From an uncultured Dehalococcoidaceae bacterium (lineage in GTDB: Bacteria; Chloroflexota; Dehalococcoidia; Dehalococcoidales; RBG-16-60-22), in NCBI GenBank assembly GCA_964558675.1, contig CAZLEY010000002.1:9359-73358 (forward strand): 64,000 bases of DNA, read 5' to 3'. The first letter of the stretch is position 1. Every line of letters begins with the position of its first letter. The notes beneath the pieces were generated by a model, which had not been told where the DNA came from, did no database searches, and saw only the letters and a list, made by a program, of their open reading frames with translations. Made by a program: the position numbers and the translations under genes. Below are positions 25,086-54,782 of the stretch, in pieces.

Positions 25086-26402
25086 ATGAAAGTATGCATT
25101 ATCGGAGCCGGTGCTGGCGGCAGGGGCGCCTCGGGACGGATTCGACAGCTGGACAAACAAGCCCAGATAGACATCTTCAGTACCCAGAGTGAGATTGGTT
25201 ATGCGCCCTGTGAACCACCCTTTGTACTTAAAGGGGTTTCCCGCTGGGACGATATATTTTATCCCGGCAAATTTTTCGAGGAGAGAAATATAACTGTTCA
25301 TTTGAGCACGGAAGTCACCGATATTCTCAGGAAGGGAAAACGCATTATCGCTGGGGGTAAAAGCTATCCTTACGATAAGCTAATTCTAAGTCCCGGGGCT
25401 GTCCCCTCCGTTCCTCCAATCCCCGGGCTGGATGGCAAAAATGAGTTTACTCTCAGCACGAATATTGCCGATGGTAAAGCCCTGGATAAAATCATCCCGA
25501 AATACACCAGTGCTGCCGTCATAGGTGCGGGAGCTATCGGGGTAGAGCTAACCCTGGCTCTTATTGCCCGAGGCTACAAGGAAGTCTACCTCATGGACAT
25601 GCTGGAGAATATCCTGCCCGCTGGCCTGGATAAGGATATGACGGGCAAGGTTGAGCAGACAATGCGAAAGAATGGCGTGGAGCTGATTACGTCTGCCAGC
25701 ATCAGCAGCGTAAAAACCGAGTCTGGAAGGAAACGTATCATTCTTCCTGACCGAGAACTGGAAGTAGATCTTATCTTCCTGACCACCGGCGCCAGACCTA
25801 ACGTCGAGCTAGCCCGAAAAGCAGGAATTGAAATAGGAGAGACAGGGGGAATACTGGTGAACCAGTATTTACAGACAAGTGACCCCGATATCTATGCCGC
25901 TGGTGATTGCATGGAGAACTGGGATATGATGACCGGCGCAAAGACCCGCCGCCTGATGGTTACCTCCGCCGGCAGGACCGGCAATGTGGCCGGTGAGAAT
26001 TTGGTTTCAGGAAATTCTTTGCCCTATGAAGGCACCCTCATGACCTTCACTATTGAAATCTTTGGCTATCAAATAGGTGCCGCCGGTTTTACGGAGAGGG
26101 TTGCCCGAGAGAAAGGGCTGGATATCATATGCGCCACAAGTACCTTCCCCAGCACGCGACCAAAATATGGTGGTAAGCTCGTTCACTCCAAGCTTATCGC
26201 TGAACGCCGGACCGGCACCTTGGTTGGGGCACAGATTATCTCGGAGGAGATGGTAAGAGGTCTGGTCAGTGAAATGGCTCTCGCCATAGCCGAGAAAGTG
26301 CCGTTGCACAGACTGGTCCTGCTTGAGTCCCCTTATTCGCCGGCGGTAGGAATGGATCCGATAGGGGTGGGGGTAAGAGAGCTAGCGGATAAGCTCGGCT
26401 GA
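25086..26402 (+). CDS. CoA-disulfide reductase / NADH oxidase-family flavoprotein, paralogue 1
   Basis: IIGAGAGG, single Cys in YAPCEPP, second dinucleotide fold VIGAGAIGVE, and AAGDCMEN. Confidence 0.7.
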   Translation: MKVCIIGAGAGGRGASGRIRQLDKQAQIDIFSTQSEIGYAPCEPPFVLKGVSRWDDIFYPGKFFEERNITVHLSTEVTDILRKGKRIIAGGKSYPYDKLILSPGAVPSVPPIPGLDGKNEFTLSTNIADGKALDKIIPKYTSAAVIGAGAIGVELTLALIARGYKEVYLMDMLENILPAGLDKDMTGKVEQTMRKNGVELITSASISSVKTESGRKRIILPDRELEVDLIFLTTGARPNVELARKAGIEIGETGGILVNQYLQTSDPDIYAAGDCMENWDMMTGAKTRRLMVTSAGRTGNVAGENLVSGNSLPYEGTLMTFTIEIFGYQIGAAGFTERVAREKGLDIICATSTFPSTRPKYGGKLVHSKLIAERRTGTLVGAQIISEEMVRGLVSEMALAIAEKVPLHRLVLLESPYSPAVGMDPIGVGVRELADKLG

Positions 26403-26492
26403 TGCCTGGTGCTCCTCTACTCAATGATATGGAGATAAGGGCTCAAGAGGCACGATAGGACATGGAAGAGAGATTAATGACAGGAGGCCAAA

Positions 26493-27818
26493 ATGAAGGT
26501 AAGCATTATTGGAACCGGTGACGGCGGTGCTACGGCGGCCAACCAGATTAGCCGCATGGGTAGCGAGGCGCAAATCGATACTTTCAGTCGAAGGTTGGAG
26601 CTTGGTGTTCCACCGTGCGAGATGCCGCTGGTCATCAGTGGGGATATCGCCAGCTGGGATGAGTTGGCTCGCGGCTTTCGTAGTATGTCGTTCTGGGAGA
26701 AGCGCAATATAGGGATGCATTTGAATACCGAGGTTACCGAAATTGACAGGCGGGATAAATATCTGGTTGCCAATGGTAAAAAATATGGGTATGACAAGCT
26801 CATCCTGGCTCTCGGTGCTGCGCCTGTCATTCCTTCCTTTCCAGGGTTGGACAGAAAGAATGAATATGCCATGAGCACCGATATGGCTGATGGAGTTGTT
26901 CTGGCGAGTGTCATTCCTCAGTGTACCGAGGTGGCTATCATTGGCGGTGGCTTCATCGGCCTGGAGATTGCCGCGGCTCTGAAAGCCAGGGGATATAGCA
27001 AGGTCTACCTTCTGGTCAGACGAGCTATATTGCGGGCAAACCTGGACCAGGATATGGCAGAAAAGGTAGAAAGCGTTCTGGCGGAGAACGGGGTGGAAGT
27101 GATTATGCCAGCCGATGTTAAAAGCGTGGTCAGCGATAGAGGTAAAAAGCGTGTGATTCTCTCCGACCGGGAGCTTGATGTGGATTTCATCTTCTTTGGA
27201 ACCGGGGCTGTGCCCGATGTTGGTCTGGCTCGAAAAGCGGGGCTGGATGTAGGCGAGACAGGGGCAATAGTGGTGAACCGGTATCTTCAGACGAGTGACC
27301 CTGATATCTATGCCATTGGTGATTGTATGGAGAACTGGGATATGGTTACGGAGTCGAAGAGGCAGCACCAGCTGGCCAGTAACGCCATTCGGACCGGGTT
27401 TATAGCCGGCAGAAACGTAGCCCTGGGCAATCTGCTCACTTACGAAGGCACCGTGATGCCTTTCGTTACCAGTATATTTGGTCATCAGATAGGGGCGGTA
27501 GGCTTTACCGAGAGAGAAGCGGAGGAAAGGGGATTGAACGCCGTGTCGGTCACCGTTGACACGCCTCGTCTTCGGGACAGGTTCAACGGGAAACCTGCCC
27601 GTTACAAACTTGTTGCCGACGGCAAGACCGGGACCCTAATCGGCGCCCAGATAATCTCCGAGGAGATAGTAACCGGTACGGTGGACAAGCTGGCGGTAGC
27701 TATTGCCTGTAAGATGCCGCTGGCAAAGCTGGTTCAGATTGACAGCAGCTACTCACCTCACGTACAGGAAGACCAGATAGCTGTCCCTTTGCACCGTTTA
27801 ATTGATAAACTTGGCTAA
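26493..27818 (+). CDS. CoA-disulfide reductase / NADH oxidase-family flavoprotein, paralogue 2
   Basis: About half of its residues are identical to the preceding ORF by eye. Same motif order: IIGTGDGG, VPPCEMP, IIGGGFIGLE, AIGDCMEN. Confidence 0.7.
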   Translation: MKVSIIGTGDGGATAANQISRMGSEAQIDTFSRRLELGVPPCEMPLVISGDIASWDELARGFRSMSFWEKRNIGMHLNTEVTEIDRRDKYLVANGKKYGYDKLILALGAAPVIPSFPGLDRKNEYAMSTDMADGVVLASVIPQCTEVAIIGGGFIGLEIAAALKARGYSKVYLLVRRAILRANLDQDMAEKVESVLAENGVEVIMPADVKSVVSDRGKKRVILSDRELDVDFIFFGTGAVPDVGLARKAGLDVGETGAIVVNRYLQTSDPDIYAIGDCMENWDMVTESKRQHQLASNAIRTGFIAGRNVALGNLLTYEGTVMPFVTSIFGHQIGAVGFTEREAEERGLNAVSVTVDTPRLRDRFNGKPARYKLVADGKTGTLIGAQIISEEIVTGTVDKLAVAIACKMPLAKLVQIDSSYSPHVQEDQIAVPLHRLIDKLG

Positions 27819-28264: not shown

Positions 28265-28507
28265 TTATTTCTTATTCTTATCGCGGGGGTTCTCTTCTCG
28301 TTGGTGACCCGGGTTCAGGATTTGGGGATGGAACAGCAGGTACAATATTGAGCCGAAGCAGGGAATTATCAGTATCGCTATTACCCATGGGGGCTTATAC
28401 CCCCCGAATACCCTCTGCCGGGACGCTAGGTCATGGATTAAAACCCCGGCCAATATCCAGTGAACTATACCAAAAAGGATTATCCTTAAAACCCATTCGG
28501 GGTCCAT
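28265..28507 (-). CDS. PLD-nuclease N-terminal (PLDc_N) small membrane protein
   Basis: Two transmembrane helices with WVIAILIIPCFGSILYLLF. Confidence 0.55.
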   Translation of the reverse strand: MDPEWVLRIILFGIVHWILAGVLIHDLASRQRVFGGYKPPWVIAILIIPCFGSILYLLFHPQILNPGHQREENPRDKNKK

Positions 28508-28605: not shown

Positions 28606-29334
28606 CTAGACTTTTTTACGGTAGTGGGTGATATCTCTGAATATAGAAATCTGGCACACTGTCCCATCAGAATCGACGTAGGGAGCTGCCACTATCTCAT
28701 AGGTTCTGCCATCTGGAAACTGGCATTCCCAGTTCATGACTTTTCCATTGTTGATAACTTCCGGTATTTTACAGTCCTGCATGCAGGGAGTATTAGCTTT
28801 TTTCAGGTGTTCGTAGCAGGTAGAACCGGTGCCCTCGCCAAAATCATTCACCATATTGGAATTCATGAATCGTATCCTGTAATCCGGGCCGGTGATGATG
28901 ACGCCATCTGCCATACCATCGACGATTTTCAGAAGCTTGTCTCTTTCGGCGGTTATCACTGTCTCCAGTTGCCGGGATTTTTCTGCCTGATTTCGTATAA
29001 TACCAACAAGGCAGCCAATAACCCCGGCGAATAAGGTAAAAATTATCATCCTGAGTAAAGGGTCAGGAAAAGGAGATATGAAAAAAGCGCGGGGCAGGAA
29101 GATAATGAAGCTCACCAGCGTGAGGATAATCGCTCCTTTAACCTTGGCGGTATAGCCGGCGTATATTATTGGTGCCAGAAACAGAAGACGGTGTATATCG
29201 TGCACACCGTAAAAGAAATTGGCCCTAAGGGTATTCCATGCCGCCCAGTCTACCAGTTCACCGAAATAGTAAAACAGGGTGCATAATACGAGGAGCAGAG
29301 GCATGATGAATGCCCTGAAACCAACATTATTCAT
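28606..29334 (-). CDS. Membrane protein (about 4 transmembrane helices) with a C-terminal Cys-containing PAS-like domain and no output domain
   Basis: The hydrophobic N-terminal half is followed by ERDKLLKIVDGMADGVIITGPDYRIRFMN...CYEHL...CMQDC. Confidence 0.55.
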   Translation of the reverse strand: MNNVGFRAFIMPLLLVLCTLFYYFGELVDWAAWNTLRANFFYGVHDIHRLLFLAPIIYAGYTAKVKGAIILTLVSFIIFLPRAFFISPFPDPLLRMIIFTLFAGVIGCLVGIIRNQAEKSRQLETVITAERDKLLKIVDGMADGVIITGPDYRIRFMNSNMVNDFGEGTGSTCYEHLKKANTPCMQDCKIPEVINNGKVMNWECQFPDGRTYEIVAAPYVDSDGTVCQISIFRDITHYRKKV

Positions 29335-29362: not shown

Positions 29363-29821
29363 TTACTCTGTGGTTCTCAGTTCATCAACAATCATTTCGA
29401 CGCAAAGGGGTATCGCCTCTGTCACTTCGGGGGTACATTCCTCACTGAAACGGCTTGTATCTGCCGCTTCGATGGCGAATATGTCAATCCGGGATGGCAA
29501 AGCCATGCCGAGCTTCCTGCCGAGTTCAAGAGCCGTAGCGAAATTAACATCATGGACCGAGGCAGCGTGCCGGGTGGCATCAAATACCTCCGGGTCAAGC
29601 CGGTAAATCTGGCCTGCCCTGCCCCCGACGGTCTGAATGGCATCAATGATAATAGCCCTGTCATAGTCAGCCAGCAGGTCCAGTATGTCAAGACCAGCCA
29701 GGCTCGTCTCCATAACTGTCGCCTCATGGTCGAGTCTGCGTTCCAGTTCGTTAGCAACCCGGACACCTGCACCGTCGTCGGTGAGAATAGGGTTGCCCAG
29801 TCCCAGAACCAGTGTCTTCAT
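29363..29821 (-). CDS. [NiFe]-hydrogenase maturation endopeptidase
   Basis: MKTLVLGLGNPILTDDGAGVRV and DAIQTVG motifs. Confidence 0.85.
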   Translation of the reverse strand: MKTLVLGLGNPILTDDGAGVRVANELERRLDHEATVMETSLAGLDILDLLADYDRAIIIDAIQTVGGRAGQIYRLDPEVFDATRHAASVHDVNFATALELGRKLGMALPSRIDIFAIEAADTSRFSEECTPEVTEAIPLCVEMIVDELRTTE

Positions 29822-29863
29822 TTCCCAATCCTCTTATGTACGTGTAACTCTCACCTTAAGTGG

Positions 29864-31345
29864 TTAGGAGGGCAGGTGCTGACTGAGCCTGTCAATCACC
29901 TCTCCCTTGCTATCACGAATAACCACCTCCAGCGGCATCTGTCCTGGCAGCGCGTGGGTAGCGCAGGCCATGCACGGGTCGTAGGCGCGAAATGCCATCT
30001 CGACCATATTCAGCAGTCCTTCCGATGCCACCTGGCCCTTCTTAATCAACCCCTGGGCTGCCCTCTTGACCGACATATTCATCGCCGGGTTATTCATTAC
30101 CGTAGCCACAATCAGGTTCACCTTCTCGATAATGCCTTTATCATCGGTCTGATAATGGTGAATCAGAACGCCGCGAGGAGCCTCAACAACACCGACTCCC
30201 TCGTCGGGAGTGGCCGTTGGGATGGTCCTGACCTCGGGGCTGGTTATCTCACTATCCTGGCAGAGCTCCAGGAGACGCTCGGCGGCGTACAGTATCTCGA
30301 TTAGCCTGGCCCAGTGGAAGGCAAGTGTGGCATGCACCGGCTTGCCGCCCAGTGTCTCATACATCCTTTCGTACTCAGCCTGAGCCAGAGGTGTAGCCAT
30401 GCCGTCAGCCACATTAAGTCTGGCCAGAGAATTCACCCGGTAAACGCCGCTGTCCTTGCCGTCAACGAGGCCCTTCCAGCCGACATTTTTCAGGAAGGGG
30501 AACTTCAGGTAAGACCAGGGCTCAGTGTGCTCGGCTATATAGTCCAGATAGTCAGCCGCTTTAAATCTGGCAGTCTCCTTCCCATCGGGGTCGACCACGC
30601 GGAGGTCGCCTTCATAGAAGTTCACCTTGTTATTGCTGTCAACCATGCCCATGTAGTAGCTGTTCATGGTGTAGATGTCACCGGTTATCAGCTCCAGGTA
30701 TTCTTTATTGGCCAGCACCAGGTCGTCGAACAGCTTTATGCCTAGTTTGCCGAACTCAACCAGTGATTTGGCTTTCTCCTCGAAGTCTTTTCGCTCCTCC
30801 TCGGTAATTGGCTTGCTCATGCCTCCCGGCAGACCGCAGACAGGATGGGTCGCCTTGCCCCCGATAACCGCCTGAATATCCTGGGCATAGGCCCGGTGCT
30901 TTATCACCTCGCTGCCAATGTCAAGGCCAACCTTGGCTACCAGCCCGAGGATATTTCTCTCGGCGGGGTCGCTGGTGGGTCCCAGGACAAAGTCTGGGGC
31001 GGCCAGGGCATAAAAGTGAGCAACATGGGAGTGAATCATGTGGGCGCAGTAGAATAATTCCCTCAGCTTCTTGGCGGCTGGCGGTGGGTCTACGTGGTAG
31101 ACGGCATCGGCTGCCTTGGTGGATGCCATGTGGTGGGCACCGGGGCAGACCCCGCAGATGCGCGTCGTTATCCGGGGCATCTCCTCAACCGGCCTTCCCT
31201 CACAGAATTTCTCGAAACCGCGAAGCTCAGGTATCTGTAGATAGGCGTTCTCAACATCCCCCTCGTCGTTCAGGAATATTTCTATCTTGCCGTGTCCCTC
31301 GAGCCTGGTTATGGGGTCAATGCTGATCTTTTCCATTTCACTCAC
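29864..31345 (-). CDS. mvhA: [NiFe]-hydrogenase large subunit, MvhA/Vhu type (group 3c-like)
   Basis: [10 protein letters not shown]...[11 protein letters not shown] near the N-terminus and DPCMACATH at the C-terminus. Confidence 0.85.
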
Positions 31346-31415
31346 TCCTTAATTGTTATGGAGCATTTTCTCCTTCAGCTTCTGATTAAATTACCCGAAT
31401 ATGTCTGCCACAAAT

Positions 31416-32378
31416 TTAAGTTTTAGGGAGGCGTTTTCGCTTCAACATAGAATCGGCCAGCCCGAATCTATAGAAAGTACCCGCCGGGTCAACCACTTCA
31501 TCCACCAGTTTCTTAATCTCCTCCTCGCTCTCACCCTGATAGATAGACGCGATGGCGCTGACCAGCTTGGCGCCCTGGTCAGCTACCCCCGGCGGCGGGC
31601 CGAAGCAGCCGCGGCAGGGCATATTGGCGTTAATGCAGCGGAGACCACAGCCTCCCCGCGTTGCCGGCCCGCAACAGATTATACCCTGTTCCAGCAGGCA
31701 TTTCTCAGGGTCAGGTATAATCTCATGGGGACGGTAAAGCTTGGTTATCTTCTTTTCTTCTTTTTTGCGTTCACACTCGTCACAAAGCGTCTTATCCGAG
31801 GCAATCACCGACCCCACCGGAGGTAATTCGCCCTTAGCGAAGAGATTCACCAGCTTAAGGATAAGGTCTACCGGCGGCGGGCAACCCGGGACAAAGTATT
31901 CCACGTCAACTACCTGCGCCAGCGTCAGCACCGTGTCGAATAATTCAGGCAGTTCTAGCTCTCCTTCGGCAACCTTGGTCACGGTTTGAGGGAAAGTGCC
32001 GTTAGCATTGTTGTTTGACGGTGCTTCAATGTAAGCCCGCTGGAATATCTCGTCACGGCTGGTGAAATTGGCCAGTGCCGGTATGCCGCCGAAGCAGGCA
32101 CAGGCTCCAAAGGCCACCATTACCTTGGACTTATCACGCAGCAGTCTGGCAATCTCTTCCTGCTCGGTGCTTCTGACAGCCCCGTTGAAGAGGCATAAAT
32201 CAATGCTCTTATCCTCCATAGCCTTAACATGATGGTATTTAAAGTCTACGGCGATTGGCCAGAACACTATGTCGACCAGGTTGGCGATATCCAGTATCTT
32301 TTCATTGGTGTCAAGCACAGCCACATCACAGCCGCCGCAGGAAGCCGCCCAGTACAGCGCTAATTTCGGTTTAGCCAT
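31416..32378 (-). CDS. mvhG: [NiFe]-hydrogenase small subunit, MvhG type
   Basis: [23 protein letters not shown]. The ATG at 32378 overlaps the mvhD stop in an ATGGCTAA arrangement. The track start at 32393 is also possible. Confidence 0.8.
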   Translation of the reverse strand: MAKPKLALYWAASCGGCDVAVLDTNEKILDIANLVDIVFWPIAVDFKYHHVKAMEDKSIDLCLFNGAVRSTEQEEIARLLRDKSKVMVAFGACACFGGIPALANFTSRDEIFQRAYIEAPSNNNANGTFPQTVTKVAEGELELPELFDTVLTLAQVVDVEYFVPGCPPPVDLILKLVNLFAKGELPPVGSVIASDKTLCDECERKKEEKKITKLYRPHEIIPDPEKCLLEQGIICCGPATRGGCGLRCINANMPCRGCFGPPPGVADQGAKLVSAIASIYQGESEEEIKKLVDEVVDPAGTFYRFGLADSMLKRKRLPKT

Positions 32379-32793
32379 TCTCACTACCTCCATTACGACT
32401 GAAAGGTCCCAGTTGCCTTATTTGCTCCGTCATCTCGTTAACGACGGCAGCAAAGCGGTCTCCCTCTGACGCCGAGACCCATTCCAAACGTACCCGCTCG
32501 TCTTCAATCCCGAGCTGAGCCAGCATTTTCTTCAGTAAGGGTATCCGGCGGGCTGTCTTCTTATTACCATCCAGGTAATGACATTCACCGAGATGTCAGC
32601 CGCAGACCAGGACGCCGTCAGCACCCTTTTCAAATGCTTTCAGGATGAAGGTAGGGTCTACCCTTCCGGAGCACATGACCCGTACCACTCTAATATTGGG
32701 CGCATACTTCTTCCGCGAAGTGCCGGCAAGGTCAGCGCCGGCATATGAGCACCAGTTGCACAGGATACCTACAATCTTTGGTTCAAAGCTCAT
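32371..32793 (-). CDS. mvhD: MvhD-type hydrogenase/heterodisulfide reductase delta subunit, selenocysteine form (TGA at 32598-32596 read as Sec)
   Basis: The 65-aa track ORF ends VLVCG at a TGA. The same frame continues [48 protein letters not shown]... to TAA at 32373-32371. GC(U)HxGxCHY is the MvhD signature. Total length is 140 aa. Confidence 0.75.
32563..32579 (-). promoter_or_regulatory. Candidate SECIS hairpin for mvhD
   Basis: In the mRNA, AUUACC-UGGAU-GGUAAU begins 16 nt after the UGA. Confidence 0.35.
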
Positions 32794-32868: not shown

Positions 32869-34545
32869 TTAGACGAGTGTTTTATCAGCTACACGTTCCT
32901 TAGCCACAGATTCATGGTAAGCTACCATTGCCTGCTCGGCTGCATTTACTATGTGATATACTATGGGAGAACCAGTAAGCGCTGGATGTGTCCCTATCTG
33001 GGAAAAACGAATATCCTCAGCCGTTGCCTTGTTCGCCACCAGAACAGCTAGAGCATTTGTCAGCTCTCCAACTGACACCCCACCATAGGCTTCGCCTCCC
33101 AGTATCCTTCCGCTGCTTCGGTCAGATATCAGGTTGACCTGCATCGGCTGGGCACCGGGCATACTGCCTGGATGCTTGTCTGGAGCACTCGCCTTACCGA
33201 TGAGCACGTCAAACCCTGCCTCTCTTGCTGCCTTCTCTGTCAGCCCGGCTGTACCTACGGCAACGTCTCCAACCCTGGTGCTAAACACTCCTATAACACC
33301 CTTGTTCTCCACGCAGGGCCTGAAGAGATTGGACGTAGCTATCCTGGCCTCATTTGTGGCAATTGAGGCCAAACGTAACGGGACCGGCTTGGCGGTAAAG
33401 AAGGAGTATTTCTCGGCGCAATCCCCTATAGCAAAAATGTTGGGGTCACTGGTCCTCATATATTGGTCTACTTTTATGCCCTTGGTAGCACCGATCTCGA
33501 GGCCTGCCTCTTGCGCCAACCTAGTATTAGGTGCCGAGCCAATGGCCATCATGACCAGGTCTGCCTTTAGTTGCTCTCCGCTGGACAACTCTACATGACT
33601 GACCTTACCGTTGCCGAGAATCTGATTAACACCATTTCCACATAATACTTTTATGTTAGCCTTCGCCAGCTCTTCCTCCACCCGTATGCAGAACGGTTCA
33701 TCACAATTTAAGGAGAGACAATGCGGCAATAATTCGACGATGGTCACATTCAAGCCCCGCTTGCGTAATTCATCGGCAAATTCTACCCCGATAAACCCGC
33801 CTCCTATGACCACTACATCTTTTGCCTTGGCCAGCGCCTTATCCAATGCCTGCAGGTACTCTACATCCTTTTTAACGGTATATACATTGTCTAACTCTCT
33901 ACCTGGTATTGGAGGCACCGCAGGCAGAGAGCCGGTGGCTAGTATTAGCTTATCGTAGCCGATGTTCCTGCCCCCGGCTGTGGTAACCCTCTGAGATTCC
34001 CTGTCGATTGAGGTTACCTCGTCGATTACTAACTCAGCATCCCCTATGGCGCCGTCAGGTATCAAGTTCTTTTCCGCTGAGCCAAGAGTACCAAAAATGT
34101 AAGGAATACCGCAGGGCACCAATACCTTGGACTCTTTTCGAATAACCGTTATCTTCCCTACATTGTTGTTAAGCCTTTTGGCTGTAATCGCTGCCTGAAT
34201 TCCGGCAGCGCTACCTCCCACAATGACTAGTTCAGCTTTCTCCGCTGCAGGTACAGGCATCGGCGTTACCCACGTTGGCAATGCTGCTTCGCTTTCCGCC
34301 TCTCTAGAGACAGCCTGTCCTTCTTCCGCAGCCTCTATCGCTTCAAGTATTGAGCGGTCTACAGCCTGCTTATTCCTGATAATCTGCATCGCCTCACGCA
34401 CCAACCGGCGAGCAGCCGCTCTCCTTTCGCGTGCTTCCTTGGTATTGGCGTGGAGACCGAAAATAGTCAGGTATAAAACGAATGCCACGGGGATAAGGAT
34501 TATAGGTATGGCTATGCCCAGCGCTAATACAATCTCCCACTGCAT
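32869..34545 (-). CDS. Membrane-anchored pyridine nucleotide-disulfide oxidoreductase (CoADR/Nox-like) encoded between hdrA and mvhD
   Basis: N-terminal transmembrane helix MQWEIVLALGIAIPIILIPVAFVLYLTIFG and a basic linker. Then VIVGGSAAGIQAA, LVPCGIPY, VIGGGFIGVEFA and AIGDCAE. Confidence 0.7.
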   Translation of the reverse strand: MQWEIVLALGIAIPIILIPVAFVLYLTIFGLHANTKEARERRAAARRLVREAMQIIRNKQAVDRSILEAIEAAEEGQAVSREAESEAALPTWVTPMPVPAAEKAELVIVGGSAAGIQAAITAKRLNNNVGKITVIRKESKVLVPCGIPYIFGTLGSAEKNLIPDGAIGDAELVIDEVTSIDRESQRVTTAGGRNIGYDKLILATGSLPAVPPIPGRELDNVYTVKKDVEYLQALDKALAKAKDVVVIGGGFIGVEFADELRKRGLNVTIVELLPHCLSLNCDEPFCIRVEEELAKANIKVLCGNGVNQILGNGKVSHVELSSGEQLKADLVMMAIGSAPNTRLAQEAGLEIGATKGIKVDQYMRTSDPNIFAIGDCAEKYSFFTAKPVPLRLASIATNEARIATSNLFRPCVENKGVIGVFSTRVGDVAVGTAGLTEKAAREAGFDVLIGKASAPDKHPGSMPGAQPMQVNLISDRSSGRILGGEAYGGVSVGELTNALAVLVANKATAEDIRFSQIGTHPALTGSPIVYHIVNAAEQAMVAYHESVAKERVADKTLV

Positions 34546-34591: not shown

Positions 34592-36553
34592 TCATACTAG
34601 TACCCCCTCAATTTCAGACATTATTTGCTCGGTGGTAAAGTGTTTACCCTTAATGGCACCGCTGGGGCAGGCGGCCACGCAGGTGCCGCAGCCCTTGCAG
34701 AGCGCCTCATTGATGCTGGCAACCTTCTTCTCTTCATCAAAGGTTATGGCCTTGTAAGGACAGAGGTCAATGCATATCTTGCAGCCGGCGCAGTGCTCCT
34801 CATCCACAACGGCGATGGCGGATTCGATTTCCACGCTGCCCTTACTTATCATGGCAAGGACTCTGGCGGCGGCCGCCGATGCCTGAGCTACCGTGTCCGG
34901 GATGTCTTTCGGACTCTGGCAGCAGCCGGCGACGAAAATTCCCTCTGTCGTCGTGGCGACGGGGTCAAGCTTGGGATGCTTCTCCAGGAAGAACCCATCT
35001 GCCTTGCGGCTCAGTGAGAAGAGCCTGGCGACATCCTCGATATCGGCACGGGGCTCTAAAGCGCAGCTCAGGATAACCATATCCACGGGGAGCCGCCGTT
35101 TGCGGCGCACCAGCGTGTCCTCGCAGATGACAATAAGCTTGCCCTCTTCTTCAGGGCTTTCGGCGATGTCGGTAATCTCACCCGCCTTCCCCCGGACGAA
35201 GTTTACCCCCTCCTCCTGAATCCGCTCGTAGAACTCTTCGTAGCCTGAGCCGGCGCAGCGCATATCGATGTATAGCTGATATACAGTCGCCTCGGGCACC
35301 TTCTCTTTCAGCAGGTGAGAGAATTTCAACGAGTACATGCAGCACACCCGCGAGCAATATTTATGATAATTCTCATCACGGCTGCCAATACAGTGCAGGA
35401 TAGCTACGCTGCGTGGCGGTGAGCCATCCTTGAGTACCAGCCGGCCGTCCGTGGGGCCGGAGGCATTGCTCATTCTCTCAAACTGTATGCCGGTAAGAAC
35501 GTTATCGTATTGGCCGTAGCCGAACTGTGGGATTACGACGGGGTCGAAAGAATCAAAACCACTGGCAACAATAATATTACCCACATCCACTTCAACCGAT
35601 TTTTCCTTTTGCTCGAAGTCAATCGCCTTCGCCTCGCAGAACATCTCACAGGCGCGGCACTTACCTTTAAGGAAATAGGTGCAATGCTCCGTGTCGATAA
35701 CCGGCACATTGGGCACTGCCTGGGGGAATGGTGTGTAGATTGCCTTTCTCGTCCCAAGCCCGCAATCAAATTCGTTATCCGCCTTCATGGGGCATTTCTC
35801 CTGGCAGGTGCCGCATCCGGTGCATTTACTTTCATCCACGTAACGCGGTTTCTTTTTTATTTTTACCTTGAAATTGCCCACGTAGCCGGATACATCCACA
35901 ACCTCACTGTATGTCATCAGCTCGATGCTTTCGTGTGACCTCACCGAGGCCATCTTCGGTGTGAGTATTCAGGCAGAGCAGTCTAAGGTGGGGAAGGTCT
36001 TGTCCAGCCGGGCCATATTACCGCCGATTGAAGGCTCCCGCTCCACCAGATAGACTTTCTGGCCGGAATCCGCTATCTCCAGGGCTGCCTGTATCCCGGC
36101 GATACCGGCGCCTACCACCAGCGTGCACGGATTAACGGCGACTTCCTTTGTTTCCAGTGGCTCATGGAGGAAGACGCGTCTTACGGCAGCGGTAACCAGC
36201 GCTTTTGCCTTCTGAGTAGCCTTCTCACTGTCCTGATGCACCCAGGCGCATTGCTCACGGATATTGGCCATCTCAAATAGATAAGGATTCAAACCGGCGC
36301 TGGCCACGGTGTGCCGGAAGGTAGGCTCGTGTAATCGGGGTGAACATGAGGCCACCACGACGCGGTTCAGCCCCATTTCCTTAATATCGTTCTTGATTAA
36401 ATCCTGCCCGGGGTCTGAGCACATGAATTTGTAATCACGGGCCACCACCACCGACGGGAGGGTTTTGGCGTATTCGGTGACCTGCCCCACGTCAACCGTG
36501 CCGGCAATATTGGCTCCACAGTGGCAGACATAGACACCAATTTTTGGCTCCAT
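34592..36553 (-). CDS. hdrA: Heterodisulfide reductase subunit A, selenocysteine form (TGA at 35971-35969 read as Sec)
   Basis: Track ORFs 35969..36553 and 34592..35953 lie in one frame. The junction reads [18 protein letters not shown], the HdrA motif that carries Sec in known seleno-HdrA proteins. Total length is 653 aa. Confidence 0.8.
35940..35965 (-). promoter_or_regulatory. Candidate SECIS hairpin for hdrA
   Basis: The mRNA sequence CUCA-CA-CCGA AGAUGGCC UCGG-UGAG forms a 4+4 bp stem with a 2-nt bulge and an 8-nt G-rich loop. It starts 3 nt after the UGA. Confidence 0.3.
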
Positions 36554-36563
36554 TTTCCGCTCC

Positions 36564-37436
36564 TTAGATATATTTTGACAAGACCTTTTCTACGGGTACG
36601 ATACCATTCTTCAAACCGAGTTCCTTTTCGCCAAGTCCAAAGGCAATGCCCATAAGCTGGGTGAAGAAAAGGACAGGGAGGTTGAAGTGGGTCTTAAACT
36701 TCTTGTTTACCCGGCTTTGATACGCATCCAGATTCGTCTGGCATAATGGACAAACCGTAACAATACACTGAGCCCCGTTGCTTGAGGCGGAATCGAAAAT
36801 TTTATGAATCAGGTCTAATGCCACGTCTTCTTCGGAAATAATCAGTGAGCCCCCGCAGCAGCGGGCCTTGAGTGGGAATGGGGTGGGCTCTGCCCCCAGA
36901 CTGGCTACCAGTTTATCCAGGGATTGGGGAGCCTCGGGGTGGTCAAAACCAAATTTGGGGCGGACTACCTGGCAACCATAATAGGGGGCTACCTTCAGTT
37001 CGCTCAGGGGTTTTTTCACCCTGGACGCGATGGCATCATAGCCAATATCGGTGGTTATAACATCAAGGAGATGCCTGACTTTCACCGTGCCGTGGTATTT
37101 CAGTCCGCCAGCAGCCAGAGCCTCGTCTACTTTAGCCTTAAACTGGGGATACCCCTTAAGGTAAGCGTTGGTATGGTTAAAAACAACGTAGCAAGCACTG
37201 CATGGCGTTACCATATCGAGCCCTCGCTTTTCGGCCAGGGCCAGGTCACGTGACGCCATGCAAAAGGCACCGAGTTCATCAACGGAACTTGATGGCGTCG
37301 AGCCGCAGCAGTTCCAGTCTTCCAGCTCAGCGAGGTCAATATCTAGGAGCTTGCTCACGGCCCGGGCTGACCAGTTATACGCCTTGGCGCCTCCCTCAGA
37401 GGCGGAACAGCCGGGGAAATATGTATAATATTTCAA
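36564..37436 (-). CDS. hdrB: Heterodisulfide reductase subunit B (two CCG domains)
   Basis: FPGCS...NCCGS...YYGCQ...RCCGGS...CPLCQ. Confidence 0.85.
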
Positions 37437-38002
37437 CTGACACCTCCTAGAGATTCAGCTTTATCAAGGATAGCTCTTAGCTGATTGGTCCCTTCCGGTG
37501 TCAGCCTTCTCGCCCTTATAGACAGGCGGTCATGCCTGAACAGACTCAATGCTATCGGAATCATCCGCCAGGCACGCAGTGGATTACTAAATATATAGAA
37601 CCAGGTCATGAATCCGAATTCGGGGAGACTTCCCAGGCTGCAGGCGAAATGGTTGAAGCTTCGGTACATAGTGGGCGTGAAGCTCCCGGCATAGCTCAGG
37701 CCGGCGCGTTCTGCCAGACACTCCAGGGCATGCATCAGGCCTGTCTGTTTTATTCCTCTTGGACAGCGCACCGTGCACAGGTAGCAGGATAGGCAATACC
37801 ACATGGCATTGCTCGATAAAACTTCCTCGCGCATGCCCGCCCGCGCCATAGCTATGAGCTGTGAGGGTGTATGGTCCATTTTTTCGGCATTAGGACAGGA
37901 AGCGGTGCAGGTACCACACTGGATGCAGAGTCGAATACCTTCACCGCCGGGGATAGCACAAATTTCATCTACAAAAGTTACAGCCTTTGCCTCTACTACC
38001 AT
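37433..38002 (-). CDS. hdrC: Heterodisulfide reductase subunit C
   Basis: CIQCGTCTASCP and CLSCYLCTVRCP. Overlaps the hdrB start by 4 nt. Confidence 0.85.
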   Translation of the reverse strand: MVVEAKAVTFVDEICAIPGGEGIRLCIQCGTCTASCPNAEKMDHTPSQLIAMARAGMREEVLSSNAMWYCLSCYLCTVRCPRGIKQTGLMHALECLAERAGLSYAGSFTPTMYRSFNHFACSLGSLPEFGFMTWFYIFSNPLRAWRMIPIALSLFRHDRLSIRARRLTPEGTNQLRAILDKAESLGGVS

Positions 38003-38082
38003 AAAACTCCCCCTCTCGATATATAGGCCACTGATAATTCAGTTTGGGTTTGTAATTAAACAACACGTCTTATTCAGATGAA

Positions 38083-38108
38083 AAAAGGGAGTATTAATAC
38101 TCCCTTTT
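38083..38108 (-). terminator. Intrinsic terminator (perfect palindrome) between the MEWQ peptide genes and hdrC
   Basis: AAAAGGGAGTA-TTAA-TACTCCCTTTT. On the minus-strand RNA the hairpin is followed by UUUUUU. It overlaps the stop codon of the 63-aa ORF. Confidence 0.6.
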
Positions 38109-38298
38109 AAGTAACCTCGTGAGCTACCGTTTCTTCAACTGGCGTTACCGCTTTCCTTCGTGTGATGGTGACGCGCCGCCGTAGCCTGTCACGGGCAACC
38201 TGGTATAGACCACTGACGACCGCTATCCAGACCAGTAACGGGACGAAAATGATTACGGGTATTGCAATTACCAGGGCCAGTATTACCTGCCATTCCAT
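38107..38298 (-). CDS. MEWQ single-pass membrane peptide, copy 2 (63 aa)
   Basis: MEWQVILALVIAIPVIIFVPLLVWIAVVSGLYQVARDRLRRR... with an AAGGGGGA ribosome-binding site. Confidence 0.6.
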   Translation of the reverse strand: MEWQVILALVIAIPVIIFVPLLVWIAVVSGLYQVARDRLRRRVTITRRKAVTPVEETVAHEVT

Positions 38299-38352
38299 CT
38301 TGTGTTATTCCCCCTTTCTAAGTATTTCTGTTTATCTCTTCTGGTGTCATGG

Positions 38353-38523
38353 CTATTTGGTCTTGGCTGTTACCTTGACACCTTTCTCGCGGATAACTCG
38401 TCTCGCTCTCGATTCCTTAATGGCAGCGTAGATGCCACCAATGTTCAGGTACCAGACAAACGCTGCCGGGAACAGGATGATTGGTATTGCTATTACCAGC
38501 GCAACTATAAACTGCCATTCCAT
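38353..38523 (-). CDS. MEWQ single-pass membrane peptide, copy 1 (56 aa, below the ORF-track cutoff)
   Basis: The reverse complement from ATG at 38523 reads MEWQFIVALVIAIPIILFPAAFVWYLNIGGIYAAIKESRARRVIREKGVKVTAKTK, ending at TAG (38355-38353). AAGGGGG ribosome-binding site. Confidence 0.55.
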   Translation of the reverse strand: MEWQFIVALVIAIPIILFPAAFVWYLNIGGIYAAIKESRARRVIREKGVKVTAKTK

Positions 38524-38554: not shown

Positions 38555-38622
38555 TAGAGGTAAGAGCTGGATTATGGAGCTAAGCCGAAGAGACTTCCTT
38601 CCATCCTCTCCTCTTACCTCTA
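38555..38622 (-). promoter_or_regulatory. Long hairpin in the leader upstream of MEWQ copy 1
   Basis: Perfect 12-bp inverted repeat: TAGAGGTAAGAG (38555-38566) and CTCTTACCTCTA (38611-38622), separated by 44 nt. Confidence 0.45.
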
Positions 38623-38860
38623 CTTTCAGACTACTATCATGTTGGAAATTTATCTTCCGTATTAATGCCTGTTTCCGATGCTGTAAACAACTAAACCGCT
38701 AGCCTTCAACTTACACTTTATACCTAGTCGCAACTGTGAAAATTAGGCATAAATGCTTATCAATATGAGGTATTTATACCTATGGTTTAGGCCTTTTCTG
38801 AATTGAGTACCCAACCTTAAAGGGGTATTATAGAGATATCCCAAAAAGAGGGAGTGCCAT

Positions 38861-39526
38861 GTGGGTAAGATAAGAATTTTAATCGCTGATGACCACGCCA
38901 TGGTGCGCGAGGGCACGCGCCAGATATTAGAGCAGGAGAAAGACCTGACCGTAGTTGCTGAGGCTGGTGATGGTGAGGAAGCGGTACGGTCGGCCGGTAC
39001 CTTCAAGCCGGACGTTGCCATAATGGACATCGCCATGCCCAGGCTTGACGGTATTGGGGCTACCAAGCAGATTAAGGCACTTTATCCTTCTATAGCCGTG
39101 TTGATACTTTCGGCTTATGATGACGACCAGTTTGTCATCAGTTTTTTAGAAGCCGGGGCGGCTGGCTACCTGTTGAAAAGTGTGCGAGGTCGTGAACTTG
39201 TTAATGCCGTACGAGCCGTATATGCTGGAGAGTCGGTGCTTCATCCGGCAATTGCCCGTAAGGTGCTGAACCGTTTTGTGCCTGCTGCCGGTAACCTGGC
39301 GAGGCGGGAAGCATCAGAGCTGCTAAGTGAGCGAGAGATGGATGTTCTCAAGCTGGCGGCCAAAGGATTGCGCAGTGAGGATATCGCCCACGAACTGAGC
39401 CTCAGTCTCCGTACGGTTCAAAATCACCTGAACCATGTATTCAATAAGCTGCGGGTGAGCTCGCGGACCGAAGCCGTGGTACGCGCCTTAAAGGAGGGCT
39501 GGATTTCTCTTGATGATGTGCCATGA
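38861..39526 (+). CDS. NarL/LuxR-family response regulator
   Basis: Receiver domain ILIADDHAMVREG...DVAIMDIAMP plus a C-terminal LuxR HTH (LSEREMDVLKLAAKGLRSEDIAHEL). GTG start. Confidence 0.85.
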   Translation: MGKIRILIADDHAMVREGTRQILEQEKDLTVVAEAGDGEEAVRSAGTFKPDVAIMDIAMPRLDGIGATKQIKALYPSIAVLILSAYDDDQFVISFLEAGAAGYLLKSVRGRELVNAVRAVYAGESVLHPAIARKVLNRFVPAAGNLARREASELLSEREMDVLKLAAKGLRSEDIAHELSLSLRTVQNHLNHVFNKLRVSSRTEAVVRALKEGWISLDDVP

Positions 39527-52136: not shown

Positions 52137-54095
52137 CTAACTGGGAATCCTCAGGGTTACCGTGGTGCCCGTATCTGGCTCTGATTGTACGATTAAGGTC
52201 CCCCCGATAAGGCGTGCCCTTTCGCGCATCCCGATGATGCCTATCTTCCCGGACAGGGCCAGATCGCTTGTCCTTTCGGGCATATTAAATCCTTGACCGT
52301 TGTCGCTTATGATTAAAGTCAAAGCGTCAGCGCCAAAATCCAGATTCATCTCAACCGCTGAAGCATGTGAATGTCTCCTGACATTGCTTAATACTTCCTG
52401 AGCGATGCGGAAGACGGTCAATTCCTCTTCCGGCGCAAGCCGACGCCTTTTGCCGGTGATATTGACCCGCGTGGTAATCTCGTAGCTCTTTTCAAGGTCG
52501 GTAATGAGCCACTCCAGCGCCGGTATCAACCCCAGGTCATCCAGTATTGATGGTCTGAGGTCCTGGCTGAAGCGGCGTACGCCTTCGAGAGCGGAGTCAG
52601 ACATCTCATGCAATTTATCCAGGCGCTCTGTTATCGGCTTGGTCAGTTCCTTCTCTTCCGTGATAAGCGAGTCCAGGCCGCGTGAAAGAGTGGCCAGAAT
52701 TTGAGCAGTGTCGTCATGGAGTTCACGAGAGATGCGCAATCGTTCATCCTCCTGGGCTCTTGTCACCTGTTTTATGTAGTACTCCATATTCTGCCGTAAT
52801 TCCTTTTCCTCGGTTACGTCCTGGGCAATAACCTGCAGACCGATTACCTCGTTTCTTCTGAGCAAAGGGCCAATCCTGAGCTCGAAAAACGCCTCTGTTC
52901 CATCCTTTCTGGTCAGGCCGACTTCCTCAACCCCGCCGACCGTTACCTGCTCCATTTTTTCCGAGAAAAGCTGTTTGACCTTCTCCTGGCTTACGCCGGA
53001 AAAGAGTTCGTAGATGGACGTGGATGTCAGTTCTTTCTGTGTGAAGCCGGTGAGCTGTTCACAGGTCTTATTAACCGAGATAATCCTGGCTGTCGTGGAG
53101 CAGATAAAAATGGCATCACTGGAATTTTCAAACAGTCCTCTGTAGCGCTCCTCTGATATCCGCAGTTGTTGAGCGGTAATCTGCTGTTGCTGATAAAGGT
53201 GTGCGTTTTCAACGGCAACGCCAATCTGATTGCCGATGGCGGTAAGCAATTCCACTTCCTCCGGCTGAAACTGGCGGTAGCTGTACATGGAAATGCAGAT
53301 GGTACCGTTGACCTTCCTTTTGGAACTTAGCGGAACAATCAGTGTGGAGTGCAGTTTGAATTTACTGACGACTTCCCTGGTAAGTCTGGGGTCCTGGGAA
53401 GCATCCTCGACAAACAGAGGTTGCCCGGACTGGGCTACACTACCGTTGAAACCTTCTCCCAGCTTAAGCCTGTCCACGCCCCGGGCAAGCTCTTCGGATG
53501 AGCCACGGTGAGTCGCCAGGGCAAGCTCATTGGTTTTTTCATCCAGAAGAAATATCCAGCCAATGTCGGCTTGCATGACATCGACGACACTGTCTATAGC
53601 GTTACTCAGGACATGGCTCAGTTCCAGAGATTCGGAGACGGTGCCTGATATCTGGTTAAGAGCGGCAAGTCGTCTCTCATCATCTCTGATGACCTGCACA
53701 TTTGCCTGAAGCTCCTGCTGGGCATTCTCCAGTTGATGAACCGCCCGTTGTTGCCGATGAATAAGCCAGCTAACCAGCAGTCCGATTAAGAAAAAAGCAA
53801 TGGTCTCGGTTATTGCTTCCGGCACCTGGGTGGAGAAGAGTATAGCCCGTGGCAGGAGCGCTATACTGATGAAAACGGCCGTAATTATCCCGCCCTGCAG
53901 TCTGAAGACGAAGGCAGCGTAAGCGACCGGGATGATGGAGAGGATACGGTATGTTGAATAGCGAGCCAGCTGAACAGGTGTCTGAGGCACTATAGTCTGA
54001 AGCAAGGGAATCTGGTCAGCATAGTAAATAAGGGCCCCAAAAACCATGATAGCCAGGATAATCCAGAAATGCGGAACCCTGTATATACTCTTCAC
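52137..54095 (-). CDS. Sensor histidine kinase (membrane, GAF, PAS, HisKA_3, HATPase)
   Basis: About 4 N-terminal transmembrane helices. H-box RISRELHDDTAQILA. C-terminal GIIGMRERARLIGGTLIVQSEPDTGTTVTLRIP. Confidence 0.85.
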   Translation of the reverse strand: MKSIYRVPHFWIILAIMVFGALIYYADQIPLLQTIVPQTPVQLARYSTYRILSIIPVAYAAFVFRLQGGIITAVFISIALLPRAILFSTQVPEAITETIAFFLIGLLVSWLIHRQQRAVHQLENAQQELQANVQVIRDDERRLAALNQISGTVSESLELSHVLSNAIDSVVDVMQADIGWIFLLDEKTNELALATHRGSSEELARGVDRLKLGEGFNGSVAQSGQPLFVEDASQDPRLTREVVSKFKLHSTLIVPLSSKRKVNGTICISMYSYRQFQPEEVELLTAIGNQIGVAVENAHLYQQQQITAQQLRISEERYRGLFENSSDAIFICSTTARIISVNKTCEQLTGFTQKELTSTSIYELFSGVSQEKVKQLFSEKMEQVTVGGVEEVGLTRKDGTEAFFELRIGPLLRRNEVIGLQVIAQDVTEEKELRQNMEYYIKQVTRAQEDERLRISRELHDDTAQILATLSRGLDSLITEEKELTKPITERLDKLHEMSDSALEGVRRFSQDLRPSILDDLGLIPALEWLITDLEKSYEITTRVNITGKRRRLAPEEELTVFRIAQEVLSNVRRHSHASAVEMNLDFGADALTLIISDNGQGFNMPERTSDLALSGKIGIIGMRERARLIGGTLIVQSEPDTGTTVTLRIPS

Positions 54096-54119
54096 AGCTA
54101 TTATCCTCTTTGTCAGGCA

Positions 54120-54782
54120 CTACGCCAGGTCGTCCAGACTTAACCAGCCTTTTCTCAGTGCCTGCAAAACAGCCTCGGTTCTAGAGCCTACGTCCATCTT
54201 GCGGAAAATATTGGCCAGATGGGCCTGCACGGTACGTCGGCTTACAAATAGCTTATCGGCGATATCCTGATTGCTCATGCCTTGGGCAGCTAACTTCAAT
54301 ATCTCCGTTTCACGTTCACTGAGTTCCGCTAGCTGTGTCGGCTCGCTGGAATCCTGACCGACGCCGAAGCGGCTAAAGACCTTCTGGGCAATGGCTGGAT
54401 GGAGTACCGCCTCCCCGGCATATACGGCACGAATAGCGTTGATTAAGTCCTTGCCGCTGACATTCTTTAACAGGTATCCAGCCGCCCCTGCCTCCAGCAG
54501 TGCCATAATATACTGGTCGTTATCATAAGCGCTTAGAATCAGTACGGCTGTAGAAGGTTGGCTGGCTTTAATCTGTCGCGTTGCCTCAATACCATTGACC
54601 TTGGGCATGGCAATATCCATTAAAACCACATGGGGAGATTTTTTGCTGGCAAGCTCAATGGCCTCTTCGCCGTCGCTGGCCTCGCCGATAACCTCCATAT
54701 CCTTCTCTTTATCAATCAGGTTGCGCGTTCCCTCACGGAAAAGCGCATGGTCATCAGCGATAATAACATTTATCTTGCCCAT
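54120..54782 (-). CDS. NarL/LuxR-family response regulator
   Basis: VIIADDHALFREG...HVVLMDIAMP plus LSERETEILKLAAQGMSNQDIADKL. Confidence 0.85.
   Translation of the reverse strand: MGKINVIIADDHALFREGTRNLIDKEKDMEVIGEASDGEEAIELASKKSPHVVLMDIAMPKVNGIEATRQIKASQPSTAVLILSAYDNDQYIMALLEAGAAGYLLKNVSGKDLINAIRAVYAGEAVLHPAIAQKVFSRFGVGQDSSEPTQLAELSERETEILKLAAQGMSNQDIADKLFVSRRTVQAHLANIFRKMDVGSRTEAVLQALRKGWLSLDDLA

Follow-up and report, generated by a model that had tools for sequence, protein, structure and literature searches.

The current work concerns two very small genes, and a longer gene related to them, in a 64,000-nucleotide stretch of DNA (the window) from an uncultured Dehalococcoidaceae bacterium (GenBank assembly GCA_964558675.1, contig CAZLEY010000002.1, positions 9,359 to 73,358 of the forward strand). 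Both small genes are located on the reverse strand ahead of the hdrCBA block of a hydrogen-driven redox operon. The first, pep1 (38353..38523), specifies a product of 56 amino acids (aa) that starts MEWQFIVALVIAIPIILFPAAFVWYL and carries the basic tail WYLNIGGIYAAIKESRARR, and the second, pep2 (38107..38298), specifies a 63-aa product that starts MEWQVILALVIAIPVIIFVPLLVWIA and contains VSGLYQVARDRLRRR. A third copy of the same helix, MQWEIVLALGIAIPIILIPVAFVLYL, is formed by residues 1-26 of a 558-aa flavoprotein encoded on the same strand (32869-34545). These sequences belong to a large and wholly unannotated family, here named MEWQ, which appears to mark the start of regulated redox operons in Dehalococcoidia, and in which pep1 represents a type 1 and pep2 a type 2, Hdr-linked, subtype.

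The original prediction had held that the three N-termini are related, that each helix is followed by an Arg/Lys-rich tail, and that the two small genes possess ribosome-binding sites and are similar at the DNA level, all of which is present in the sequence. A profile built from an alignment of 23 family members and run against the 2.49-Mb source genome matched only five places, these being pep1 (E 1.4e-34), the N-terminus of the flavoprotein (E 8e-24), a solo copy on contig C5 (56020-56172; E 2e-22), pep2 (E 4e-22) and, as a weak partial match, a truncated remnant on contig C3 beside a regulator/kinase pair. Across the first 26 codons pep1 shares 52 of 78 nucleotides with pep2 and 56 of 78 with the flavoprotein gene, the tails are basic (Lys plus Arg versus Asp plus Glu being 9/2, 8/4 and 9/3 for pep1, pep2 and the flavoprotein anchor, respectively), and GAAAGGGGG is found 8-11 nt ahead of the ATG of both small genes. 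Judged by these scores, the likeness of the three N-termini is far above chance resemblance among hydrophobic helices. In the same 23-member alignment the first 50 residues of the flavoprotein are 52% identical to pep1, and the match extends beyond the helix into the juxtamembrane tail KEARxRR (KEARERR); therefore, a whole microprotein, rather than a mere hydrophobic stretch, appears to have been fused to the flavoprotein. A GTG codon located one codon upstream of pep1 was rejected as its start, because relatives begin at M-E/Q-W.

The ratio of nonsynonymous to synonymous substitution rates (dN/dS), calculated against orthologues, was 0.04-0.15 for pep1 and about 0.1 for both pep2 and the anchor, with synonymous sites near saturation, and by this measure all three are under strong purifying selection. 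Each of the small products consists of one hydrophobic helix plus a basic tail, as expected of a small single-pass membrane protein, and on the combined sequence evidence pep1 and pep2 are real genes of predicted single-pass membrane microproteins.

Relatives of pep1 amount to 1786 clusters at 90% identity, all of them labeled “hypothetical” or without a name, and a profile search of 1.84 billion representatives returned 517 clusters at E <= 1e-3 (258 at E <= 1e-10). Since the hits are almost all proteins of 50-90 aa or fusions of two to three repeats, the notion that the helix is a generic N-terminal anchor of many enzyme families was rejected. Leaving aside two longer proteins that were unclassified (P0238, of 240 aa, and P0256, of 223 aa), the flavoprotein cluster (P0124, 558 aa) was the sole enzyme fusion among the best 150 profile hits, and a word search with flavoprotein residues 1-45 returned just four clusters. 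P0256 contains two MEWQ units and ends in a tail rich in Cys (CWEASHCPPEIRDECP...C..C).

The impression that the family was unrecognized proved correct for the resources consulted: the one Pfam hit of pep1 was YqfD (E 0.048), pep2 had none, neither had a significant match in NCBIfam, a search of the PDB with the family profile gave psbK as its best match (E 0.77, not significant), and a literature search by motif strings and related topics found no description. All 79 of the 79 loci retrieved from species-representative genomes are from metagenome-assembled genomes (MAGs) of Dehalococcoidia/Dehalococcoidales, and in a class sample of 301 genomes 20 contain a match at E <= 0.001, of which 16 match strongly (E <= 1e-15). 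Matching genomes of that sample usually carry 2-10 copies, and none of the small, complete genomes that the sample includes from that order gave a match. From the loci and genomes searched, the MEWQ family is, as far as such sequence surveys reach, undescribed and restricted to Dehalococcoidia, and the family profile combined with the subtype motifs given below would allow hundreds of missed MAG genes to be annotated.

The family motif, M-x-W-x4-AL-x2-AIPxILFPxAFxWYLNxGG, is tightly conserved, with W3, A8, L9, P14, L17, P19, W24, Y25, N27 and G30 each kept at 83-94% across representatives that are at most 50% identical. From the two prolines in this helix we infer specific contacts rather than passive anchoring. 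The helix is without His, and no His or Cys cofactor ligands are present.

The two subtypes are distinguished by what follows the helix, type 1 continuing with WYLNIGGIYAAIKEARARR and type 2 with SG(L/I)Y(Q/T/R)VxR(D/E)xxxRR. In many lineages both are found in a single protein of 130-200 aa, in which a type-1 helix is joined through a connecting helix and a G-W-Q/E turn to a type-2 helix (for example clusters P0125-P0136, and genes at loci L048, L053, L073, L074, L086, L097, L102 and L130), the third helix being of the pep2 sequence type. The three-helix arrangement implies that the MEWQ end is located outside and the basic tail inside (N-out/C-in). The predicted topology is therefore one in which the short acidic N-terminus (M-E/Q-W-Q/E) is outside and is followed by a proline-kinked, membrane-spanning helix and by a cytoplasmic tail rich in Arg and Lys. 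By the gene-fusion argument, these natural fusions also indicate that type 1 and type 2 probably work together. In two further clusters (P0280 and P0281, with two profile domains each) a full type-1 helix and a connecting helix precede the anchor and the flavoprotein, an order that would fit pairing of the free-type helix with the anchor helix in the membrane. Taken together, both kinds of fusion argue for helices that share one putative membrane assembly. An AlphaFold2 model of one type 1-type 2 fusion returned three helices at a predicted local distance difference test (pLDDT) score of 70 and a predicted template modeling (pTM) score of 0.42, values at which the packing is not reliable.

The flavoprotein that carries the third copy is a CoADR/Nox-type, FAD-dependent enzyme (Pfam Pyr_redox_2, 1.2e-64; Pyr_redox_dim, 8.9e-14), which contains the LVPCGIPY motif with its N-terminal redox Cys, is predicted to be membrane-tethered and is encoded between hdrA and mvhD. 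Its NCBIfam score for CoA-disulfide reductase (252 bits) is below the 579-bit cut-off, and it is therefore no CoA-disulfide reductase equivalog. The anchor (residues 1 to about 45) and a helical linker (to about residue 77, RRLVREAMQIIRNKQAVDRSILEAIE) are encoded at 34315..34545 on the reverse strand. Anchor plus linker find their best match in long-tailed type-2 repeats (50% identity over 60 aa with that of L053), and share 53-58% identity with the N-terminus of a GltD/NfnB-like iron-sulfur (FeS) flavoprotein of 717 aa, a non-homologous enzyme whose gene fills the same place in the operon, between hdrA and mvhG, in L144-L149. In L136, which represents another lineage, the MEWQ array that precedes hdrC includes an orthologue of the window's flavoprotein (67% identity), with anchor and linker. 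On these comparisons, the MEWQ anchor plus linker is a portable module, carried by two unrelated NAD(P)H flavoenzymes. In one 503-aa cluster (P0278) the flavoprotein retains the residues MEWQ and the linker and has lost the helix.

Both enzymes are also encountered with a receiver (REC) domain. Among the 120 closest flavoprotein clusters, 13 are MEWQ-anchored, 12 have a C-terminal REC, 94 are plain (approximately 444 aa) and one is of another kind. The GltD-like enzyme carries an N-terminal REC instead of the anchor in L150, L182, L183, L187, L190 and others, and a CoADR-like enzyme with a C-terminal REC is encoded beside a MEWQ gene in L110. Therefore, all four combinations of CoADR-like or GltD-like enzyme with MEWQ anchor or REC exist in this genomic neighborhood. 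The REC-fused flavoproteins of hdr/mvh clusters (L150, L151, L152, L182, L183, L186-L188, L190 and L191, which are metagenome contigs, and L110) measure 745-756 aa in the REC-GltD/NfnB-like form and about 583 aa in the CoADR-like-REC form, and they are apparently NAD(P)H modules under direct phospho-control.

Past the end of the operon, the window contains two anchorless CoADR-like paralogues of 438 and 441 aa, followed by a DnaJ-domain mini-protein (25086-27818, forward strand). The 438-aa paralogue was matched by phmmer only, and the 441-aa paralogue was rejected as a source of the anchored enzyme, given an identity of only 32%.

The genes around pep1 and pep2 form a single block on the reverse strand. 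It comprises hdrC (37433-38002), hdrB (36564-37436) and hdrA (34592-36553), jointly the hdrCBA block 34592..38002, then the flavoprotein gene, then mvhD with its FlpD domain (32371-32793), mvhG (31416-32393), mvhA (29864-31345) and a HycI-type protease gene (29363-29821) that ends the mvh block 29363..32793. The assignments in the mvh block are based on phmmer and on the Pfam labels of the orthologues in L001 and L010. The operon is closed by memPAS (28606..29334), which specifies a kinase-less, sensor-like membrane-PAS protein with a four-transmembrane (4-TM) module and a Cys-rich PAS domain (weak PAS hits), and its constant partner p80 (28265..28507), an 80-aa PLDc_N-like small membrane protein. 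Divergently from pep1 lies the gene of an orphan NarL/LuxR-type response regulator (38861..39526, forward strand; Pfam Response_reg and GerE), with no adjacent kinase and with orthologues at E about 1e-100. An in-frame TGA divides each of hdrA and mvhD into two open reading frames, the pattern to be expected of a selenocysteine codon, and the FdhA-like cargo genes of related loci are split likewise (187 aa plus approximately 806 aa).

The gene order of the window (regulator, pep1 and pep2, hdrCBA-flavoprotein-mvhDGA-protease, memPAS, p80) matches exactly the plan observed across the family. This plan was derived from 87 arrays in 79 loci (48 pairs, 31 singles, seven triples and one quadruple) annotated by comparison with a constant reference set of window proteins, so that “no neighbor” means none of that set; the genomes are MAGs with short contigs, and related genomes are not independent samples. 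The commonest neighbor, found in 39 of 78 evaluable arrays, is a divergent NarL-type regulator gene orthologous to 38861-39526 at a distance of up to 1.5 kb, behind which a HisKA_3 kinase gene is usually found. memPAS and p80 are encoded downstream on the same strand in 19 of 47 arrays, either directly after the peptides (as is the case for memPAS in L001 and L004) or after 2-6 kb of cargo. That cargo is of three kinds, namely hdrCBA-mvhDGA-hycI, a TAT-exported, selenocysteine-containing molybdoenzyme with an FeS protein and NrfD, or corrinoid methyltransferases. Kinases adjoining MEWQ arrays carry the N-terminal 4-TM module of memPAS, and in the class sample a memPAS relative is present in all 16 strongly MEWQ-positive genomes versus 29 of 285 others (nominal Fisher p 4e-15, inflated by relatedness).

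The two subtypes occupy different positions in this plan. Type-1 genes head Hdr-Mvh, NrfD/molybdoenzyme or methyltransferase operons, precede sensor genes or stand alone, and type 1 is the last gene of those arrays that lead to memPAS, kinases or other genes. Of 79 evaluable arrays, 18 have hdrC no more than 1 kb downstream. Where the last gene of the array was scored as type 2, hdrC or hdrB follows in 15 of 17 cases; four unclassified arrays before hdrC were on inspection three type-2 variants (NVSGIYTVLRET...) and one type 1 (L084). Overall, about 18 of the 20 arrays ending in type 2 have hdrC or hdrB next, the exceptions being L124, in which another membrane protein follows, and L140, at a contig end. 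By this distribution, an assignment drawn from gene neighborhoods, type 1 goes with the regulator and type 2 with hdrCBA. The motif recurs beside hdr/mvh genes in several Dehalococcoidia families, and the expectation of recurrence near such genes consequently held, though for one subtype only.

Within the source genome, a second hdrCBA cluster (contig C23, without mvh) has no MEWQ gene. The window contains a second regulator/kinase pair (52137-54782, reverse strand) of the same families as the MEWQ-linked pair (E 3e-84 and 3e-158), and no MEWQ gene or matching promoter box was found upstream of the divergent genes from 55000. The intact solo type-1 copy on contig C5 has its own palindrome and box (see below), with no two-component, hdr/mvh or memPAS reference genes nearby. 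The remnant on contig C3 (approximately 97150-97560; MQWELVIALVIAVPKAVLYNQFKKGER*) keeps the promoter box and leader hairpin and adjoins an intact regulator/kinase pair.

An enriched-word search of 43 regulator-MEWQ intergenic regions recovered three recurrent elements, these being a 7-2-7 palindrome (TAGGTAT-NN-ATACCTA), a box (AAATAGGTATCAyGGCGGAAG) and a TGnTAAGCT-like -10 region. In the window, two adjacent 7-2-7 palindromes, TAGGCATAAATGCTTA and GAGGTATTTATACCTA, are located at 38744..38782 and represent the only two matches to TAGGTATNNATACCTA (with at most three mismatches) in its 64 kb. They are also the best match in the whole genome, where another (C5:55854) lies approximately 170 bp upstream of the solo copy. 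We infer that these palindromes constitute a candidate operator, bound by the NarL-type regulator. A second copy of palindrome and box is located ahead of hdrC itself in L135-L137, and the occurrence of palindromes at MEWQ promoters and, in some lineages, also before hdrC suggests one putative NarL-type regulon. Closer to pep1 lies the conserved box AACAGGCATTAATACGGAAG (38654..38673, reverse strand), followed by a TGnTAAGCT-like -10 region, the two presumably acting together as a promoter; the box is conserved upstream of all three MEWQ loci of the source genome.

The transcript leader would fold into a hairpin (38555..38622, reverse strand; predicted fold -33 kcal/mol) with an outer stem resembling GGAGGTAAGAG/CTCTTACCTCC and the apex UCUCUUCGGCUUAGCUCC. 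This hairpin is found ahead of the first MEWQ gene at about half of the loci linked to the response regulator; L068, L069, L072, L109, L110, L115, L118, L129 and L134 have such a leader. Double changes are seen at five of the seven consensus pairs, and among loci the apex is conserved and the sequence of the outer stem varies with pairing retained. The outer stem resembles a Shine-Dalgarno/anti-Shine-Dalgarno pair (GGAGGUAAGAG / CUCUUACCUCC), and Rfam contains no family for the hairpin, which may serve as a translational or transcriptional riboregulator. At the other end of the array, the stop codon of pep2 overlaps with an intrinsic-terminator-like hairpin plus T-run (38081..38108, reverse strand) located 80 nt ahead of hdrC, and many loci have a comparable hairpin after their last MEWQ gene. 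Overlap of stop codon and terminator as a general attenuator was rejected, as the terminator is 45-100 nt away from the stop codon at most loci.

It had been proposed earlier that the free peptides pair in the membrane with the anchor of the flavoprotein, or compete with it, and in this way form or regulate a docking site for the Hdr-Mvh complex. Docking fits type 2 and the anchor, and does not account for type 1, which also heads varied operons without Hdr. Nor did pairing with the anchor stand as a general role: an anchored flavoprotein is absent from the majority of hdr operons that have free peptides (those of L150, L135, L099 and L108 have a REC-type flavoprotein or none), and such pairing is therefore not the general purpose of the peptides.

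We tentatively favor a model that combines docking and regulation, to which we assign slightly less than an even chance. In this model, the helices would form a small membrane hetero-oligomer, probably beside the 4-TM module of the neighboring kinases and memPAS, with the cytoplasmic tails and the linker serving to dock both soluble Hdr-Mvh and its NAD(P)H flavoprotein. Such an assembly would constitute both the membrane-side docking site and the regulatory input of a two-component-controlled redox module, it would play the part taken in other lineages by a phosphorylatable REC domain, and it may feed back on the kinase. A bolder formulation, which we regard as rather unlikely, is that the MEWQ helix plus linker represents a new signal-input or docking domain, that is, a membrane-embedded adaptor interchangeable with REC that would let a membrane sensor, either the kinase or memPAS, directly hold and switch the soluble, electron-bifurcating Hdr-Mvh/NAD(P)H complex, the free peptides being stand-alone subunits of it.

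Several observations weigh against the combined docking and regulation model. Type-2-like genes also occur beside memPAS-type kinases (L053 and L055) or another membrane protein (L124) rather than hdr, about one third of the arrays have no reference neighbor in reach, one MEWQ copy of the source genome is solo, and the locus of the closest relative (L010/L065) is without the regulator and yet keeps the peptides and hdr. In addition, the co-occurrence counts are inflated by shared ancestry, the packing in the model of the natural fusion is of low confidence, and the interchange of REC and anchor could reflect two unrelated solutions instead of equivalent roles.

The best surviving alternative, though an unlikely one, is that the peptides act on the sensor kinase purely as feedback modulators, much as MgrB and SafA do; induced by the regulator, they would bind to the kinase membrane module and tune its signaling, with no structural role for Hdr-Mvh. 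It would agree with the regulator, with or without a kinase, being the commonest neighbor, with the operator-like sites upstream of every MEWQ copy in the source genome, with the position of the peptides as the first genes of the regulated unit, with their own terminator, with the presence of the sensor membrane/PAS module in all strongly MEWQ-positive genomes, and with the unrelated nature of the cargo behind type 1. This explanation leaves unaccounted for both the tracking of hdrCBA by type 2 and the fusion of the complete unit with its linker to two flavoenzymes of Hdr-Mvh operons, and the closest relative retains its peptides without an adjacent regulator.

It is improbable that the helices are instead passive anchors or small structural subunits that hold soluble Hdr-Mvh at the membrane without signaling, which is what the earlier docking idea amounts to. 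Type 2 immediately precedes hdrC, the same helix anchors the flavoprotein of the same operon and helix-enzyme fusions exist, all as such an anchor would require; against this, type 1 heads operons of NrfD complexes that are already membrane-bound or of unrelated methyltransferases, or is solo, the second hdrCBA cluster of the source genome is without such a peptide, the helix sequence is constrained far beyond the need of a simple anchor, His and Cys cofactor ligands are absent, and REC replaces the anchor in sister enzymes. Finally, the possibility that the small open reading frames are attenuator leader peptides or type I toxin-like peptides, of which only translation or toxicity matters, can be given hardly any weight, because despite the structured leader hairpin upstream, the terminator over the pep2 stop codon and the small, hydrophobic and basic products, amino acids are strongly conserved (by the dN/dS values given above) with synonymous sites saturated, the motif is retained in hundreds of divergent clusters, the genes occur as tandem paralogues and as fusions to each other and to enzymes, and the terminator is away from the stop codon at most loci.

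In anoxic sediments and aquifers Dehalococcoidia abound, and the control and organization of their energy metabolism are poorly known. If the combined docking and regulation model is true, it would explain how a soluble bifurcating complex is attached both to the membrane and to a two-component sensor with no cofactor-bearing membrane subunit, and a new class would be added to the small-membrane-protein regulators, which have been known mainly from enterobacteria so far.

Among known systems, MgrB, SafA and other enterobacterial modulators of PhoQ resemble the MEWQ peptides in being single-pass proteins of about 50-65 aa that belong to the regulon or neighborhood of a two-component system, and in that several small proteins may act on one pathway. 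The MEWQ peptides share no sequence similarity with them (no Pfam hit), and differ in their N-out/C-in topology and long basic cytoplasmic tail, in their tandem paralogue arrays and enzyme fusions, and in having one subtype that tracks a redox operon. HdrE, QmoC, DsrM and HmeC are comparable in that their genes adjoin hdr-type genes, and in the presumed linking of a cytoplasmic Hdr module to the membrane; location next to hdr holds for type 2 and not for type 1 generally. These proteins are multi-helix, heme b-containing and electron-carrying, whereas MEWQ has one helix, no heme ligands and no homology to them, and a MEWQ helix could therefore at most dock, and not conduct electrons. REC domains take up the position that the MEWQ unit has on both of these flavoenzyme families, and do so in the same operons; REC is a soluble phospho-acceptor whereas the MEWQ unit consists of a membrane helix and linker, and an equivalent role is suggested by their interchange. 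Lastly, FlxABCD-HdrABC and the NfnB/GltD-type modules likewise have an NAD(P)H-type flavoprotein encoded within an hdr/mvh operon, the system described here differing from these in that its flavoprotein is of the CoADR/Nox type (elsewhere GltD-like) and bears a lineage-specific membrane anchor.

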